A stretch of DNA of 64,000 bases from an uncultured Actinomycetes bacterium (GCA_963767005.1 CAVYCN010000004.1:192001-256000); one strand, 5' to 3'; positions 22,495-48,258 are shown, counted from the first letter of the stretch. Notes: a model not told the origin generated them from the letters alone. Made by a program: numbers and translations.

Positions 22495-23091
22495 CTAGGC
22501 GAAGTCGTCGGCCAGGCTGTAGCGCAGGCGTTGCACCTCGGTGCGCACCTCGCTCGTCGAATAGACCACGATATCGGTGAGCGGCGGCGCGTAGAGGTGC
22601 ACCGTGACGAGGCCGGCGTCCGCCCCGTTGCCGAGCTGATGGATCTCGCCGCGGTCCACGGCGGCGACGCCGGAGCCCGCGAGCACCTGCTCGTCGACCA
22701 GGTCGACCGGCCCGCGGGGCAGCTCCTCCGACTCGGCGCCGCCCGCGGCGGCGACGCCCGACCCGCCGTCGCGGCGGCGGAACACTCGGCTGGTGAGCTC
22801 GCCCGAGTAGACCCGGGTCACGTTCAGGCAGCCGGCGTGGTCATGAATGGTCGATGCCTGCCCGGGCTTCCAGCACAGCACGAGCAGCTCGAAGGCAGTG
22901 GTGCGGCAGACCAGGTTGCGGGCGTAGCGCTCGTCGCAGTAGCGCACGTGGGCGCCGATCAGCGCGTCGTCCAGGTCGAGACGCAGGGCGAGCGCGGCGA
23001 ACTCCGCCTGCGCCATGGTAGCCGTGTCCGCCCGGCTCGTCTCGAGGATGAACCGCTCGAAGGAGAGCGGCGTGCTGGCGTGAGCGGTCAT
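22495..23091 (-). CDS. Cysteine dioxygenase family (cupin)
   Basis: YARNLV, LCWKPGQ.STIHDH, third His in IHQL, VHLYAPP; GAGGAGG RBS. Confidence 0.88.
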   Translation of the reverse strand: MTAHASTPLSFERFILETSRADTATMAQAEFAALALRLDLDDALIGAHVRYCDERYARNLVCRTTAFELLVLCWKPGQASTIHDHAGCLNVTRVYSGELTSRVFRRRDGGSGVAAAGGAESEELPRGPVDLVDEQVLAGSGVAAVDRGEIHQLGNGADAGLVTVHLYAPPLTDIVVYSTSEVRTEVQRLRYSLADDFA

Positions 23092-41603: not shown

Positions 41604-42683
41604 TCAGCCGCGCCGGCGCCCGCCGGGGCCGCTGCCGATCTCGCGGCCGATCGCTTCGATGCGGCCCTGCAGGCAGCCGCGGCACATCTCGGCCGTCTCG
41701 CCGACGCAGGCCTTGTCGGGGTAGATCTCGTAGCGCACGCGGTACTCGGGCGGCGTCAGGTTGGGCATCACGATGTTGGCGCCGCGCTGCAGGCCGATCT
41801 CGCGGCCGTCGACCTGGTTGATCGTCGCGAGGGCCGTGGTGCTGGGCAGGTTGGCCTCGGGGCAGACGAGCCGCGTGAGGGCGACCACCTTGTACACGGT
41901 GAGCTCGTCGCTGGGGATCTGCTCGCCCGCGGGCAGCGGTCGCGCCCACGAGCGGTCGCCGAGCGGCGTCGCGGGGTGCGCGATGTAGGGCCCGATGCCG
42001 ATCATGTCGAGGTCCATGCCGCGAAACGCGGCGATGTCGTCGGCGACGCTCGCGTACGTCTGGCCGGGGATACCCACCATGATGCCGCTGCCGGCTTCGT
42101 AGCCGAGCTCCTGCAGGGTCCGCAGGATGGCGAAGCGGTCGGACAGGCGCCCGGGGAGAGCGGGGTGGATGAGATGGTAGAGCTCCTCATCCGAGGTTTC
42201 GAAGCGCAGCAGGTAGCGGTCGGCACCGGCCGCGCGCCACACCCGCAGGTCGGCGTCGGGTCGCTCGCCGAGGCTGAGCGTGACGGCCAGCGGCGTCTCG
42301 GCCTTGATGCGGCGCACGATCGCCGCCAGCCACTCCGTCTTCAAGCCGTAATCCTCGCCCGACTGCATGACCACTGTGCCGTAGCCGAAGTCGACGGCGA
42401 GATGGGCGCAGGCGACGATCTCGTCCTCGCTCATGCGGTAGCGCTCGATCGCGCGGTTGCCGGCCCGCAGGCCGCAGTAGCCGCAGGCGCGCACGCAGTG
42501 ATTGGAGATCTCGATGAGGCCGCGCAGGTGGACCTCGTCGCCGACGGTGCGCCGGCGCGCGTCGTCGGCCGCCCGCCACAGCTCTTCGAGGCGCGCGACG
42601 TCGGTCTCGCGCAGCCAGGCGAGGATGGCGTCGCGATCGAGGAAGGCCTCGGTGCCGGCCTCCGGCAGGGCGGGTGCTCTCAT
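41604..42683 (-). CDS. hydE: HydE-like radical SAM protein ([FeFe]-hydrogenase maturase family)
   Basis: HLRGLIEISNHCVRACGYCGLR, VMQSGED, RYLLRFET, GANIVMPNLTP, YEIY, C-x7-C-x2-C tail. Confidence 0.88.
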   Translation of the reverse strand: MRAPALPEAGTEAFLDRDAILAWLRETDVARLEELWRAADDARRRTVGDEVHLRGLIEISNHCVRACGYCGLRAGNRAIERYRMSEDEIVACAHLAVDFGYGTVVMQSGEDYGLKTEWLAAIVRRIKAETPLAVTLSLGERPDADLRVWRAAGADRYLLRFETSDEELYHLIHPALPGRLSDRFAILRTLQELGYEAGSGIMVGIPGQTYASVADDIAAFRGMDLDMIGIGPYIAHPATPLGDRSWARPLPAGEQIPSDELTVYKVVALTRLVCPEANLPSTTALATINQVDGREIGLQRGANIVMPNLTPPEYRVRYEIYPDKACVGETAEMCRGCLQGRIEAIGREIGSGPGGRRRG

Positions 42684-42924: not shown

Positions 42925-43884
42925 TCAGATCCGGGCCGCGTCGGCCGTCTGCACCTCGGGCTCGGCGAAGAGCACGCTCGACAGGTACCGCTCGCCCGTG
43001 TCGCAGAGCACGGTCACGATGAGCTTGCCGCGGTTCTCGGGCCGCCGTCCGACGTCCCACGCCGCCCAGGCGTTGGCGCCGGCGGAGATGCCCACGAGGA
43101 TGCCCTCATCGCGCGCGAGACGGCGCGCCGTCTCGACCGCGTCGTCGTTGGTGACTTTGATGACGTCGTCGTAGATCTTCGTGTTCAGGACCTCGGGCAC
43201 GAAGCCGGCGCCGGTGCCCTGGATCTTGTGGGGGCCCGGCTGGCCGCCCGACAGGACGGGCGAGTCGGCCGGCTCGGCCGCGTAGATCTTCACGTCGGGC
43301 TTGCGCTGCCGCAGGATCTCGCCCACGCCGGTGACCGTGCCGCCGGTTCCGACCGCGGCGAGGAAGATGTCGATCTTGCCATCGGTGTCGCGCCAGACCT
43401 CTTCGGCCGTGGTCTCACGGTGGATCCGCGGGTTCGCCGGGTTCTCGAACTGCTGCGGGATGAAGGCGCCCGGATGCTCGGCCAGGAGCTCCTTGGCCCG
43501 CGTGATCGCGCCGGTCATGCCCTTGGCCCCGGGCGTGAGCACGAGCTCGGCGCCGTAGGCCTTGAGCAGCGCGCGCCGCTCGAGCGTCATCGTGTCGGGC
43601 ATGGTGAGGATCAGGTGGTAGCCGCGCGCGGCGGCCACCATGGCGAGCGCGATGCCGGTGTTGCCGCTGGTCGGCTCGATCAGGGTCGACTGGCCGGGCG
43701 TGATCTGGCCGGCCGCCTCCGCCGCCGCGATCATGGACAGGCCGATCCTGTCTTTCACGCTGCCGCCCGGGTTGAACGATTCGAGCTTGCCGAGGATCGT
43801 CGCGCCGGAATCCTTCGAGAGCGCCTGCAGCTTGATGAGCGGTGTGCCCCCGATCAGGTCCGAGATGTTCTCAGCGTAGGCCAT
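42925..43884 (-). CDS. cysK: Cysteine synthase A
   Basis: [45 protein letters not shown]. Confidence 0.95.
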
Positions 43885-43935
43885 GTCAGCGTCTTCTCCT
43901 GTGAGTGGTGTGCCGTTTTCGTCTTGCCGCCGACA

Positions 43936-43962
43936 TTATAACCAAGTAAACATATCAAAAAA
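43936..43962 (-). promoter_or_regulatory. cysK promoter (TATAAT -10) with an AT-rich Rrf2/IscR/CymR-like operator
   Basis: ATAACCAAGTAAACATATCAAAAAA, 16/25 identical to the site at 48089-48113. Confidence 0.6.
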
Positions 43963-43990
43963 CAAGAGTTTACGTCGAGAGCACGTGGAC

Positions 43991-44860
43991 CTAGCCGATC
44001 CAGAGCCCTTCGATGCGCACCTGCAGGCCGTCGTCGCCCCGGTTCAGAAAGTTCACGAGGCCGCTGTGGCGCCACTGCATCATGCACATGCGCGGCTGGA
44101 ACCAGTAGCGGCGTCCGATCTCGACCGGCGCGCGCGCCTTGTTGATGAGCCCCTCGTAGGCCTGTGCCGAGTAGTAGCCGATGTCCTTGAAGCCGTGCTG
44201 ACGCGGGTGCAGAGGGCCGGTCACGCACCACACCATGGCGCCGGTGAAACGGTCGACGGTCTGCACGATGCCGCAATGGGTGATGGGGCAGCCGCACGAG
44301 ATGCCCAGCGGGCGGCCGATCAGGATCTCGCCGGGCTCGATCTCGAGCTCGCGCGTGATCAGCGGGTTGTGCGGGACGATCTGCTCGCGCGGTCCGGGCT
44401 CCTCGGGGAAATGCTCGAGGACGAAGTCGAACTCGCGCCCGAGGTGGTCGCACCACTCGCGGTCGACGGCGGACGCCGCCACGGCGACCGGAGCGTCGGA
44501 CGGTCGCAGGCCGGCCGCCGCCGAGGTGGCGAACACCGCCGGTGCGGCCGCGGCGGGGGTCTCGAGGCCGGCCGCCGCGCAGCCGCCCGCCGGCGTACAC
44601 GAGGCGCACGAGGCCGCATTGGCCGCCTGCGCCGCGCCGGCGCCGCTCGTCGGGGCCGCCGTGCCGAAGACGGCGCCGGCGTCGGGCACGCCGGCCGGCG
44701 CCGCCTGGACGTTCACGAAATCGGCCGCCAGCGGGATACAGCGCTTGAGCAGCTCGGGCTTGTCGGTCAGACGGGCCGCCATGTCGGCACAGGTGCGAAA
44801 GCCGCACAGGCCACAGTCGAGGCCGGGCAGCTCGACCTCACTCAGGTTCACGTTCGTCAC
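43991..44860 (-). CDS. Fe-S-binding protein (RnfB/CdhE-type N-terminal FeS domain plus Cys-containing C-terminal domain)
   Basis: LPGLDCGLCGFRTC..C; Ala-rich linker with SCASC..C; CGCPITHCG, CMMQWRHSG; AAGGAG RBS, GTG start. Confidence 0.8.
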   Translation of the reverse strand: MTNVNLSEVELPGLDCGLCGFRTCADMAARLTDKPELLKRCIPLAADFVNVQAAPAGVPDAGAVFGTAAPTSGAGAAQAANAASCASCTPAGGCAAAGLETPAAAAPAVFATSAAAGLRPSDAPVAVAASAVDREWCDHLGREFDFVLEHFPEEPGPREQIVPHNPLITRELEIEPGEILIGRPLGISCGCPITHCGIVQTVDRFTGAMVWCVTGPLHPRQHGFKDIGYYSAQAYEGLINKARAPVEIGRRYWFQPRMCMMQWRHSGLVNFLNRGDDGLQVRIEGLWIG

Positions 44861-44891
44861 GGGACGCTCCTTGGGGTCGTCGCTGTCACGG

Positions 44892-46082
44892 TCAAACGGT
44901 ACGGGCGCGCGCACCGAAGCAGGCGTGCGAGGCGATCGAGGTCAGGGATGCCGCTGCGCGCGGCAGGGTCGCGAGCAGACGATCGACGTCGTCGTCGCTC
45001 GTGAAGCGGCCCATGGTGAGGCGCAGCGAGCCGCGCGCGCGGATGGTGTCGAAGCCCATCGCCGTGAGCACGTACGAGGGCTCGCCGGCGTTGTGGGCGC
45101 TGCAGGCGCTGCCCGACGAGACCGCGATGCCGGCGTCGTCGAGCGCGAACAGCAGGCGGATGGCGTCGGCCTCCTGGCCCGAGAAGCCCAGGCAGAGGTG
45201 GCCGGGCAGCCGCAGGTACGGGTGGCCGATGAGGTAGACGTTGCCGATCTCCTCGCTCAGCGCGTCGAGCACACGATCGCGGAGCCCCACGAGACGGGCC
45301 GACTCCTCGGCCATCTCGACCCGGGCGAGCAGAGCTGCCTGGCCGAAGCCGACGACGCCCGCCACGTTCTCGGTCGCCGAGCGCAGGCCGCGCTCCTGGC
45401 CGCCGCCCAGGATGAGCGGAGCCAGTTCGACGCCGTCGCGCACGTACAGTGCGCCCACACCCTTGGGCCCGTGGACCTTGTGGGCCGACAGCGACAGCAG
45501 GTCGACCGGCAAGCGGCCGACGTCGAGCGGCACCTTGCCGGCGCCCTGCACGGCGTCGGTGTGGAAGAGCGCGCCGGCGCCGCGGGCGAGCGCCGCAAGC
45601 TCGGCGATGGGCTGCACGGTGCCGACCACGTTGTTGGCGGCCATCACCGACACGAGGCGGGTGGTCGGTCGCAGCACGGCGGCGAGCGACTCGGGCTCGA
45701 CGAGGCCGTCGGCCGTGATCGGCAGATAGGTCACCTCGACGCCGCGGCGCTCGAGGGCCCGGCACGGCTCGAGGACGGCCGGGTGCTCGAAGGCGCTCAC
45801 CACGACGTGGACGGGCGTCGGCGCCTCGCCGACCGCGCCGAAGATCGCCAGGTTGTCGGCCTCGGTGCCGCTGCCCGTGAAGACGATCTCGGCCGGCCGG
45901 GCGCCGATCAGCGCGGCGACCTCGGCGCGCCCGGCCTCGAGCGCGTCGTGGGCGGCGCGGCCCGGACCGTGCAGGCTCGAGGGGTTGCCGAACGAAGCGG
46001 CTAGGAAGGGCTCCATGGCGTGGCGCACCCTCGGGTCGAGCGGGGTCGTGGCCGCGTGGTCGAAGTAGGCGCAGGCAGCCAC
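44892..46082 (-). CDS. iscS: Group I (IscS/NifS-type) cysteine desulfurase
   Basis: YFDHAATTP, FGNPSS.H, HTDAVQ, SAHKVHGPKG, SSGSACS. Confidence 0.92.
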   Translation of the reverse strand: MAACAYFDHAATTPLDPRVRHAMEPFLAASFGNPSSLHGPGRAAHDALEAGRAEVAALIGARPAEIVFTGSGTEADNLAIFGAVGEAPTPVHVVVSAFEHPAVLEPCRALERRGVEVTYLPITADGLVEPESLAAVLRPTTRLVSVMAANNVVGTVQPIAELAALARGAGALFHTDAVQGAGKVPLDVGRLPVDLLSLSAHKVHGPKGVGALYVRDGVELAPLILGGGQERGLRSATENVAGVVGFGQAALLARVEMAEESARLVGLRDRVLDALSEEIGNVYLIGHPYLRLPGHLCLGFSGQEADAIRLLFALDDAGIAVSSGSACSAHNAGEPSYVLTAMGFDTIRARGSLRLTMGRFTSDDDVDRLLATLPRAAASLTSIASHACFGARARTV

Positions 46083-46085
46083 GGT

Positions 46086-46787
46086 TCACTGCCCCCGGTA
46101 GAAGTTCAGGTTGTCGAGGGCGCGCACGACGCCGAAGTGGGACTGCCAGCCCACCTCGCGTTTGCCGACGCAGATCGTGCAGGTGCCGACGGGCGGGCTG
46201 CCCCGCAGCATGAGGTGGTCGCCCGCCTCGGGCGTCTCGAGGATGCTCGTCACGAGTGGGTCGACGCCGATGCCGTACAGGGCGTTGGCCTCGCGAATCT
46301 GCACCTCCGGCGCGACGTCCTGGATGCGCGCCCGGAACACCTCGCGCTCGGCCTGCGACACCAGGTCGCCCTTGGTCACGACGCAGACGTCGGAGAGCGA
46401 GAGGATGGGACCCACCTTGAGCGGCAGGTTCATGCCGCTCGTGGCCTCGAGCACGCACACGCCCAGGCCGCCGTCGACGTAGGGCGCGCAGCGCAGGCAG
46501 AGGCCCGCGGTCTCCACGAGCAGGATGTTGCAGTCCCGCTTGTCGGCCCACTCCATGGCGTCGCCCAGCACCATCACGCTGCAGTGGTCCGGACACAGCT
46601 CGCCCGAGTAGAGCTTGCGCGTGGGGATGCCGAACTCGGCGGCGAGCAGCTCGTCCTCCTCGGCGAACTGCACGTCGATCTTGAGGAACGCGACGCGTTC
46701 GCCGCGCTCGATCAGCTTGCGGATGGCGTGACGCAGGACGGAGGTCTTGCCGGTCGTAGCGGGGCCGGCCGCGATCGCGAGTCTCAT
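46086..46787 (-). CDS. Cys-rich SIMIBI/G3E GTPase (HypB/UreG-like)
   Basis: GPATTGKT, LKID, LCPDHC, VETAGLCLRC, TKGD, CTIC. Confidence 0.82.
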   Translation of the reverse strand: MRLAIAAGPATTGKTSVLRHAIRKLIERGERVAFLKIDVQFAEEDELLAAEFGIPTRKLYSGELCPDHCSVMVLGDAMEWADKRDCNILLVETAGLCLRCAPYVDGGLGVCVLEATSGMNLPLKVGPILSLSDVCVVTKGDLVSQAEREVFRARIQDVAPEVQIREANALYGIGVDPLVTSILETPEAGDHLMLRGSPPVGTCTICVGKREVGWQSHFGVVRALDNLNFYRGQ

Positions 46788-47572
46788 GAGAACGCCCCCT
46801 GGAGCTCGTCGCCGGTGAGTGACGCGCCCAGGCGCAGCTTCTCGCGCAGGCTCGACAACACGTCGTCGAGGCGCGTGACCTTGGTCGCCAGGGCGCGCTC
46901 CTGCTCGCTCGTGCCGAGGACCTTCATCATGCGGCCCTCGCTGATCACGATGCGAAAGTCCGACAGCAGCGCGATGCGCGGGTCGTGCGTGACGAAGATG
47001 AAGATCTTGCGCTGCCGGCGCAGCAGCTCGAGACATCGGGACCGGTCTATGCCGGCGTTCTCGACCTCGTCGAGCAGCACGATCGGCGTGTCGCAGATGC
47101 TCGTGGCGTCGGCGATCAGCAACGCGCGCGTCTGACCGCCCGACAGCTCCGTCATGCGCACCGAGAGGCCGATCGCCTCGCCGGTGAGCTGGTTGGCGAA
47201 GTCGATCGTGTCGGCGATCATGCTCTCGGCGTGCTTGCCGCCCACCGATCGCACCCTGGCGTGGATTTCGAGAAACTCGCCGACCGGCAGGTCGGACAGG
47301 AACGTGGTGTGTTGCGTGATGAGGGCGATCGGGTTGCGCGACGGGTCGTCGCGATACTCCTGCGGCGCGGGCTCGCCGTTGATCAGGATGGTGCGTCCCG
47401 ACGGCGTGTCGCGCGCGGCGAACATCTCGATGTCGTTGATCAGGGTCGTCTTGCCGGAGCCGGTCGGTCCGACGATGCTCGCGACGTTGCCCATGCGCAG
47501 CTCGAGCCGCTCGACGGGCTCGGGCTCACCGCTCTTGCCGTGGCCCCCCAGGATCACGATGGTGTCGATCAC
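46784..47572 (-). CDS. Stand-alone ABC-family ATPase (no permease)
   Basis: GPTGSGKT, LSGGQ, LLDEVENAGID, VTHD; no TM segment; stop overlaps the GTPase start. Confidence 0.85.
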   Translation of the reverse strand: MIDTIVILGGHGKSGEPEPVERLELRMGNVASIVGPTGSGKTTLINDIEMFAARDTPSGRTILINGEPAPQEYRDDPSRNPIALITQHTTFLSDLPVGEFLEIHARVRSVGGKHAESMIADTIDFANQLTGEAIGLSVRMTELSGGQTRALLIADATSICDTPIVLLDEVENAGIDRSRCLELLRRQRKIFIFVTHDPRIALLSDFRIVISEGRMMKVLGTSEQERALATKVTRLDDVLSSLREKLRLGASLTGDELQGAFS

Positions 47573-47784
47573 TCGGCTCTCCTTCTCTCGCTCGATTGGA
47601 GGGACGAGCCCCGGGGTGAGTCGGCGTCCGCCTCGGACGACGATCGGCTCGCGCCTCGACGGGTGCGGAGCCGGGCGCGTCGTTCCTCGCGAGCCCCATG
47701 GGTCTCCCTCGCTTTGTCTGGAACGACCGCCGGTGGTCCGGTGGGTCGCGGTGGGGATGGCGCGCGGCGCGCGCCGGTCGATCG

Positions 47785-48084
47785 TTACGGGCGGTTCCCG
47801 CTCGACCGCGGCGCCGGAGGAGGCTCGCCGGGGCGCCCCGGCCGCCCGGCCGCCGCCGGTCTGTCGAACCGCAGCTTCTCGCGGCGCTCGATCTGCACCA
47901 CGCGTGCGTCGTGCACCGTGATCTCGACGGAGCCGTAGTCGAGGCTCCTCACGGCCTGCAGGATGCGACGCTCGACCTCGGGGTCGCCGCGCTCGGCGGG
48001 ACGAGCTGCGTCGTCTCGCCCGGCGCGAGCGGCTGGGTCGCCGGCGGTGTCGCGCTTCCCTCCGAGCACCTGCGCCTTCCTCAC
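47785..48084 (-). CDS. YezD/DUF2292 (OscA-like) small protein
   Basis: ILQAVRSLDYGSVEITVHDARVVQIERREKLR. Confidence 0.82.
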   Translation of the reverse strand: MRKAQVLGGKRDTAGDPAARAGRDDAARPAERGDPEVERRILQAVRSLDYGSVEITVHDARVVQIERREKLRFDRPAAAGRPGRPGEPPPAPRSSGNRP

Positions 48085-48088
48085 GGCA

Positions 48089-48113
48089 TTATCTGACTGA
48101 ACAGGTCAACAAA
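48089..48113 (-). promoter_or_regulatory. Rrf2/IscR type-1-like operator
   Basis: TTATCTGACTGAACAGGTCAACAAA with TGAC-N7-GTCA dyad. Confidence 0.6.
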
Positions 48114-48258
48114 TGGGATAAACGTGTCGCGCCATTATCGTCGGCGGCGTGCGCCGGCGCAACCCTCGGGCCCGTTCAGGCTGCGCCGGCGGTCGGACTC
48201 GCCCGACGGGGCGATCCGACCGCGCGCGGCAGACCGTCAGGGGGCCCGGCCGGCTGCC

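Follow-up and report, generated by a model that had tools for sequence, protein, structure and literature searches.

The locus examined here raises the question of what a cysteine desulfurase, a cysteine-rich GTPase, an iron-sulfur (Fe-S) protein, and an ATP-binding cassette (ABC) ATPase with no permease are doing together in one compact operon. It lies within a 64,000-nt stretch of DNA from an uncultured Actinomycetes bacterium (GCA_963767005.1 CAVYCN010000004.1:192001-256000), which we refer to as the window and from whose start positions are counted, and contains seven genes, all on the minus strand: yezD, the genes for the ATPase, GTPase, desulfurase, and Fe-S protein, cysK, and hydE. A first-pass annotation, made from the sequence alone, had read all seven as a candidate undescribed sulfur-relay or Fe-S assembly system. 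We find that the ATPase, GTPase, and Fe-S protein genes form a conserved operon in which the desulfurase is optional, and that cysK, hydE, and yezD are not core. The proposed gene set holds for its central trio and not for its flanks, and what also stands is the broader claim that a G3E GTPase and an ABC ATPase lacking a permease belong to a conserved, uncharacterised, sulfur-linked module. General Fe-S assembly is probably not its function, and we tentatively propose that it serves sulfur supply when sulfur is scarce.

The tight packing of the core is reproduced. The stop codon of the ATPase gene (46784..47572, minus strand) overlaps the start of the GTPase gene (46086..46787, minus) by 4 nt (ATGA), the desulfurase gene (44892..46082, minus) follows after 3 nt, and the Fe-S protein gene (43991..44860, minus) after a further 31 nt, whereas the outer gaps are far wider (212 nt between yezD and the ATPase gene, 106 nt between the Fe-S protein gene and cysK, and 241 nt between cysK and hydE). 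Among 74 loci from many phyla, retrieved from GTDB with the GTPase as query and biased towards the query's own clade, the ATPase gene is directly upstream of the GTPase gene in all 71 with room to see it, and the Fe-S protein gene is downstream in 68, the remaining six contigs ending within 1.2 kb. The predicted co-occurrence of the three genes across genomes is thereby borne out, and their linkage is far beyond chance. The desulfurase gene is inserted between the GTPase and Fe-S protein genes in 54 of the 68 loci, but it is dispensable: in a sister clade drawn from metagenomes, for which 32 of 43 loci were kept after 11 short weak matches were dropped, the ATPase gene adjoins the GTPase gene in all 22 loci that could be tested and the desulfurase gene is present in only 5 of 27. 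The flanking genes are far less constant, with cysK in 25/74 loci, hydE in 8/74, and yezD in 7/74, the latter two in close kin only (the yezD query is short, and distant copies may be missed). Median identities to non-kin loci are 75% for the GTPase, 67% for the ATPase, 61% for the desulfurase, and 52% for the Fe-S protein. Methanobacteriota is the commonest phylum for the Atlas clusters at 0.96 and 0.94, and the annotation's mention of similar pairs in methanogens and Firmicutes agrees with a published methanogen locus, described below, and with our sample of Bacillota. In one close relative (L081:7482-8604) the module copy is broken and partly deleted while cysK and hydE are retained, which shows that the module is dispensable there. 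Ten long proteins that fuse neighbouring genes in their order, each on a single contig, are probable frameshifts and were not used as evidence.

Every cysteine and D-loop motif that the annotation had named is found in the protein to which it was assigned. The ATPase (262 residues, PF00005) has an intact ABC motif set, with Walker A, Q-loop, LSGGQ, and H-loop invariant in 30 of 30 homologues (K41, Q87, SGGQ, D168/E169, and H196). Its D-loop, LLDEVENAGID at residue 166, had been singled out as unusual, and the DExENAGI pattern is kept in all 30 homologues: D168, E169, E171, N172, A173, G174, and I175 are invariant, and the last D is found in only 4/30. Judged by these alignments, the DExENAGI D-loop is a private trait of the family. 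The ATPase contains no transmembrane-like stretch, and the operon has no permease gene, as had been noted. No solved structure is closely related to it (the best ABC match has E 1.4e-14), and SufC is absent from its best 25 of 119 NCBIfam matches and best 60 of 78 PDB matches. The GTPase (233 residues, PF02492 over the cut-off) carries the G3E features GxxxxGKT, VETAG, and TKGD (G1, G3, and G4) with CPDH after G2, and its cysteine motifs are CPDHC at 65, CLRC at 97, and CTIC at 203; the CPDH, CxxC, and C-terminal CxxC motifs recur in 35/35 homologues. A Foldseek search with its predicted structure (pTM 0.80) has UreG (E 1.6e-10) and HypB (E 4.6e-10) as its top matches, and CPDH aligns with the metal motif of both. 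Beyond what UreG and HypB contain, the GTPase has CLRC, CTIC, and a C-terminal tail that is highly conserved and in which the monomer model shows little order. All characterised G3E members function in metallocofactor assembly, according to the part of PMC13202556 available to us.

The Fe-S protein consists of an N-terminal PF04060 four-cysteine domain (C16/C19/C24/C41), a variable linker modelled with low confidence, and a confidently modelled beta-rich C-terminal domain that includes CGCPITHC at 189. Its relatives carry the JGI label 'uncharacterized Fe-S cluster-containing protein', which we take to be the title of COG2000. The N-terminal domain resembles the electron-transfer cluster domains of AcsC and RnfB, and its four cysteines are kept in 20/20 distant homologues. 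In the C-terminal domain C191, H195, C259, and H265 are each kept in 23/24 distant homologues and C189, C196, and C212 are not retained, from which we infer a Cys2/His2 metal or redox site. The fold has a best Z of 4.3 among 48,161 chains and no Foldseek match at E <= 0.001, and the C-terminal domain has zero Atlas matches; such null searches do not establish a new fold. The desulfurase contains the PLP (pyridoxal phosphate) lysine (SAHK) and SSGSAC, and its best NCBIfam match is the class I model TIGR03402 (436 bits, below the cut-off of 530.75). It is 51% identical to the genome's own IscS and a median 61% identical to operon copies of other phyla; a quick-method tree of 36 rows neither supports nor rejects a single clade of operon copies. 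The MSPL tail of two IscU-linked desulfurases, which has a role in IscU binding, is found at the aligned position in 0/51 operon desulfurases. The desulfurase thus appears dedicated, and dedicated desulfurase-target pairs are known, NifS-NadA being an example given in the available part of a 2026 review (PMC13066941).

The trio is itself only one version of a wider arrangement. Thirty loci were returned from the 32 matching genomes (both subfamilies) in a sample of 251 Bacillota. Fourteen belong to the form described above, which we call subfamily I, and every one has the ATPase and Fe-S protein genes. The other 16 belong to a distant subfamily II, in which the GTPase is 36% identical and the order is solute-binding protein, GTPase, ATPase, with the ATPase gene adjacent in 15 (the other being at a contig end). 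No Fe-S protein gene is present within 1.5 kb of the GTPase gene in these 16 loci, although the short flanks could hide one beyond the ATPase gene, and seven Fe-S protein queries found none in two wider subfamily II loci. Upstream in 10 of the 16 is a gene for a solute-binding-like protein without a hydrophobic N-terminus. CPDH, GLCxRC, and CxxCxG are kept in 30/30 GTPases across both subfamilies. Because the third protein swaps between subfamilies, the ATPase-GTPase pair is the constant unit, or engine, and because subfamily II lacks the Fe-S protein, the chemistry of that protein cannot be the pair's universal job. We also note that in subfamily II (L151:4823-7807; L152:4058-7005; L153-L168) the solute-binding protein is cytoplasmic and DUF1858-capped, with a G-x-LPC motif in many, and that GTPase clusters across both subfamilies number at least 7,775 at E <= 1e-30.

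Is the module, then, a general Fe-S assembly system, as the first-pass annotation had suggested in part from the lack of a scaffold gene? The five prokaryotic systems named in the review text available to us (PMC13066941) are ISC, NIF, SUF, MIS, and SMS. There is indeed no U-type or SufBD gene in the window, since the sole NifU_N in the genome is on another contig (C2), beside another IscS, and SufBD (PF01458) has zero matches genome-wide, with the positive control found in 14/14; the further claim that SufE and IscA are missing concerns families that were not searched for. Absence from the window is not absence from the cell, however, for the same genome has a separate Rrf2-IscS-IscU-mnmA locus. 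In a profile of 50 genomes of its family, NifU_N (IscU) is present in 50/50 and the trio in 11/50. For carriers from other groups, 62 loci were reduced to 50 genomes by excluding 12 near-duplicates or short contigs. NifU_N is found in 43/50 and SufBD in 28/50 of these genomes at E <= 1e-20, and at least one of the two in 49/50, so the module adds to housekeeping assembly and does not substitute for it. The Rrf2 regulators linked to the module also mostly lack cluster-type cysteines (22 of 25). General Fe-S assembly is therefore an improbable role, and it is likely that the module does not replace the cell's ordinary Fe-S machinery; by the features tested, it falls outside all five assembly families.

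The gene neighbourhood points instead to sulfur metabolism. We annotated 146 of 213 selected neighbouring open reading frames by Pfam and 37 by NCBIfam, and although most of these are isolated, unrelated occurrences, Rrf2, cysK, cysE, metY, and sulfonate-type transporters recur; cysK, metY, cysE, or comA is present in 28/74 loci. Genes for SsuD sulfonate monooxygenase, cysteate sulfo-lyase, nitrogenase-like NifB/H/D, family 2A encapsulin, TauE, a sulfur transporter, a cysteine dioxygenase-like protein, sulfate adenylyltransferase, and ThiF are single-locus neighbours. The present genome encodes two CysK and a MetY and has no PAPS_reduct, NIR_SIR, or Sat match, and so needs reduced sulfur. The host is likely an anaerobe, because its genome (estimated completeness, 100%) holds an [FeFe]-hydrogenase with hydG and hydF.

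Regulation tells a similar story. An Rrf2 gene is upstream in 26/67 loci, although not at the present one, and 22/25 of the encoded proteins are without cysteine in the sensor segment, of which the Rrf2 of the genome's isc locus has three; this would suggest cysteine-sensing rather than cluster-sensing control. All belong to the Rrf2 superfamily, and for 7 of 8 locus regulators the best equivalog is CymR, far below its cut-off. CymR keeps cysK and sulfonate genes repressed in the presence of cysteine, and the repression is lifted without it, as stated in the part of PMC3828012 available to us. A 27-nt AT-rich element upstream of cysK (43938..43964, minus), a candidate Rrf2-type operator and promoter, is conserved in seven relatives and is the top genome match of a matrix trained on the six cysK-upstream sites of relatives only. 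The same matrix places the element upstream of yezD (48089..48115, minus) at rank 8 of 6.87 million positions, and a weak one upstream of a second rrf2-cysK operon at rank 63. When yezD sites are included in the training, shuffled matrices reach 22 bits compared with 27.3 for the yezD site, and support for this predicted operator is therefore only moderate. We doubt the suggestion that the system receives its cysteine from CysK, since a conserved element of its own precedes cysK and most of the linked Rrf2 proteins are without cysteine in the sensor segment. The second rrf2-cysK operon (G000:C2:58064-61155) has an extra gene between cysK and cysE, and at G000:C12:111633-115307 a cysteine-free rrf2 stands ahead of metY and probable metX and metW; this makes a third sulfur operon, and the rrf2 product is a candidate trans-regulator. 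In seven Chloroflexota loci (L023, L025, L026, L028, L029, L032, and L079) two tandem Rrf2 genes are upstream of the ATPase gene, the second divergent and without the GGY motif.

From the gene linkage, motifs, folds, neighbours, and distribution we infer every functional step of the model we favour, which we place close to, but short of, an even chance: a sulfur-limitation module that matures, and then drives, a metallo-protein supplying sulfide-level sulfur. The ATPase and GTPase would be a cytoplasmic nucleotide-driven engine, first loading and then driving the Fe-S protein. A cysteine-free Rrf2 repressor would be released at low cysteine, and the desulfurase would provide the sulfur needed, once and in small amount, to build the metal-sulfur centre of the module itself; where the desulfurase is dispensed with, sulfide or a housekeeping system might meet this need. 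We read the desulfurase as a maturation factor because sulfur passed in bulk from it to CysK would only run in a futile cycle, and its absence from many loci fits this role. The GTPase would bind a metal or cluster through CPDH and its two CxxC pairs and insert it into C191/H195/C259/H265, after which the tethered four-cysteine domain might relay low-potential electrons in a cycle gated by ATP hydrolysis. The Fe-S protein would then capture or release sulfide-level sulfur for cysteine or homocysteine synthesis under scarcity, the product feeding CysK or MetY in bacteria and the coenzyme M thiol step in methanogens. Several observations weigh against this proposal. Subfamily II is without an Fe-S protein, 46/74 loci are without the four cysteine, methionine, and ComA markers within the stretch seen, and a siroheme sulfite/nitrite reductase domain is already present in 26/50 carrier genomes. 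An anti-correlation of the module with sulfite reductase or sulfate activation was looked for and not found. The locus Rrf2 proteins, many of them close kin, reach neither the CymR nor the IscR cut-off, and the operator matrix fails in other phyla (median 6.65 upstream compared with 4.7 downstream, confounded by AT content). The C-terminal domain of the Fe-S protein, moreover, has no functional homologue from which to argue. A bolder form of the proposal, possible but clearly on the doubtful side, makes the pair a new class of two-nucleotide maturation machine with exchangeable clients, and subfamily I an enzyme that would interconvert inorganic sulfur species without siroheme, driven by ATP/GTP and built on a new fold with a Cys2/His2 metal-sulfur site.

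An alternative that we consider unlikely is client-specific assembly of Fe-S or Fe-S-X clusters, in which the desulfurase would feed the GTPase or the Fe-S protein as a scaffold and the ATPase would release the cluster to nitrogenase-like reductases, radical SAM enzymes, LarE, or HydE. The parts parallel SufS, SufC, and a scaffold, the desulfurase gene sits between the GTPase and Fe-S protein genes in 54/68 loci, nitrogenase-like genes are neighbours at L035 and L054, and hydE is adjacent in close kin. Yet no client gene is constant, the desulfurase is present in only 5/27 sister-clade loci, and a known scaffold is already available in 49/50 carriers and, as IscU, in all 50 family genomes, 11 of which have the trio. 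The mostly cysteine-free regulators and the lack of the MSPL tail from all 51 operon desulfurases also speak against it. HydE, which the annotation had offered as a recipient, is an unlikely general client, being found in 8/74 loci, all close kin, with hydA, hydG, and hydF on another contig.

The exchangeable third partner, together with a subfamily II solute-binding protein that has no signal-like N-terminus (10/16 loci) and the frequent linkage to Rrf2 and cysK, would also suit a cytoplasmic switch in which that partner senses a thiol or sulfide and the pair controls CysK, MetY, or Rrf2. We find this improbable, as the dedicated desulfurase and the conserved Cys/His site speak for chemistry, and no output domain is seen. 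Maturation of nickel or another metal cofactor, with the sulfur link secondary, is quite improbable in spite of the UreG- and HypB-like fold of the GTPase and its aligned CPDH. The GTPase falls far below the equivalog cut-offs of both families (43.3 against 121.2 bits for HypB and 22.4 against 204.2 for UreG), the recurrent neighbours are sulfur genes, and neither a urease nor a NiFe-hydrogenase gene occurs among the 146 Pfam- or 37 NCBIfam-annotated neighbours.

Sulfite production for sulfonate synthesis by ComA or cysteate synthase, which we judge more improbable still, takes its appeal from the methanogens. A trio of ATPase, Ni2+-binding GTPase, and COG2000 genes lies beside methanogen coenzyme M genes, its role stated to be unknown in the Fig. 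2 legend of Chadwick et al. 2025 (bioRxiv 10.1101/2025.02.10.637553 and PMC12068725), and the three gene types are adjacent at the present locus too. The Fig. 1 legend of the same paper states that the sulfur species used by the methanogen homocysteine and coenzyme M sulfurtransferases is unclear. In our loci comA is adjacent in 2/74, so that some link to sulfonate chemistry exists, and a sulfolactate-dehydrogenase-like gene is present in L073 and L083. However, a genome-wide search found neither ComA nor cysteate synthase in the present genome, and among the 50 other carriers they are found in 7/50 and 0/50 (the completeness of these genomes not being given; UDP-sulfoquinovose synthase was not searched for), counts that refute sulfite supply as the general role in the present clade. 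Within the family, ComA is present in 8/11 carriers and 34/39 non-carriers. The sulfonate-synthase link thus fails for this clade. The family also has PAPS_reduct-family genes in 39/50 genomes (often a cysH/cysD-like pair), ComA in 42/50, and a siroheme sulfite reductase domain in 1/50, and it seems that sulfate reduction there either stops at sulfite, destined for sulfonates, or proceeds through an undescribed reductase. MA4556, a 'GTP-binding protein' strongly changed in the transcriptome table of Chadwick et al. 2025, is not taken as a trio member because it sits between RubisCO and cobalamin protein genes. That the ATPase powers a membrane transporter encoded elsewhere is highly improbable. 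In its favour, the best sequence matches are transporter ATPases (weak, E ~1e-14), and in four related Bacillota loci a binding protein and a permease are encoded with no second ATPase in sight. Against it, the ATPase has a private D-loop and, wherever a locus of either subfamily can be tested, it is found with the GTPase; that permease family occurs in only 7/74 loci, three with their own ATPase, and not in the present operon.

Comparison with characterised systems places the module far from any of them, although the gene trio itself is already in print. The methanogen trio comprises the same three gene kinds, a likeness by kind in which no methanogen protein was aligned, but the present locus is bacterial, has the desulfurase inserted, stands beside cysK, and belongs to a genome without ComA or cysteate synthase. 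SUF and SMS also combine a soluble ABC ATPase, a desulfurase, and a cysteine-rich partner, whereas the module has no SufB/D, a class I rather than class II desulfurase, and an obligate G3E GTPase, and it coexists with SUF or MIS. With MIS, ISC, and NIF it shares an IscS/NifS-type class I desulfurase but not a U-type scaffold in the operon, the genome's MIS being a separate locus. The GTPase resembles HypB and UreG in fold, G-motifs, and the position of the CPDH metal motif, and differs in its ~20% identity, two more conserved CxxC pairs, the conserved C-terminal tail, its pairing with an ABC ATPase, and the lack of a nickel enzyme nearby. AcsC and RnfB (PF04060) have the same Cx2Cx4C...C motif on a mobile domain, to which the Fe-S protein adds a beta-rich Cys2/His2 domain unmatched among the solved folds searched. 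In Bacillus subtilis, NifS-NadA, NifZ-ThiI, and YrvO-MnmA (in the available part of PMC13066941) likewise set a paralogous desulfurase beside one target, but here the presumed target is an uncharacterised three-protein module. In the literature searched we found no description of an obligate pairing between a G3E GTPase and a soluble ABC ATPase, and no relevant mention of COG2000 other than in Chadwick et al. 2025, subscription papers being mostly outside the search; the available parts of papers on nitrogenase-like sulfur enzymes contain no mention of the module. What is new here is the failure of the sulfonate link for this clade, the two-subfamily structure, and the removal of two proposed general roles.

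The remaining features of the locus are more local. The small DUF2292 (OscA-like) protein encoded by yezD (47785..48084, minus) is lineage-specific and scores 62.6 bits with PF10055 and 53.8 with NF033785, under the latter's cut-off of 85; its true start may be later than called. The 212-nt gap between yezD and the ATPase gene (47573-47784) contains a segment, CCCACCGGACxACCGGCGGTC, that is conserved in seven relatives and is possibly an RNA element. The cysteine synthase A gene, cysK (42925..43884, minus; TIGR01139, 459.9 bits, over the cut-off), is a frequent but non-core neighbour, and the [FeFe]-hydrogenase maturase gene hydE (41604..42683, minus; TIGR03956, 310 bits, over the cut-off) lies outside the module. 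In close kin hydE stands behind cysK, apart from hydA, hydG, and hydF (G000:C18:113-7719 in the present genome), a position that may have to do with the need for cysteine in making the H-cluster, or be due to chance. A cysteine dioxygenase-like cupin (22549-22959, minus) is 34% identical to one beside the trio in L027, and at L114:4076-10242 the trio interrupts an operon for a phosphate-type ABC transporter, which includes a separate ATPase gene for that transporter, beside sulfate adenylyltransferase. The closest relatives of the locus carry the labels Thermoleophilia or Actinomycetes, the locus has no phage match at E <= 1e-15, and a scan of it for sigma-70 promoters and terminators found nothing.

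How anaerobes unable to reduce sulfate acquire and route sulfur is only partly known, and the module is a direct candidate for this gap in sulfur supply, with a GTPase ~75% identical across phyla, a presence in 32/251 Bacillota, and a place beside the coenzyme M genes of methanogens. It is also addressable in cultured hosts. If the bolder form of our proposal were true, subfamily I would give anaerobes and methanogens a missing route between sulfide, sulfane sulfur, and sulfite. In more general terms, the module likely helps anaerobes to obtain usable sulfur under scarcity.

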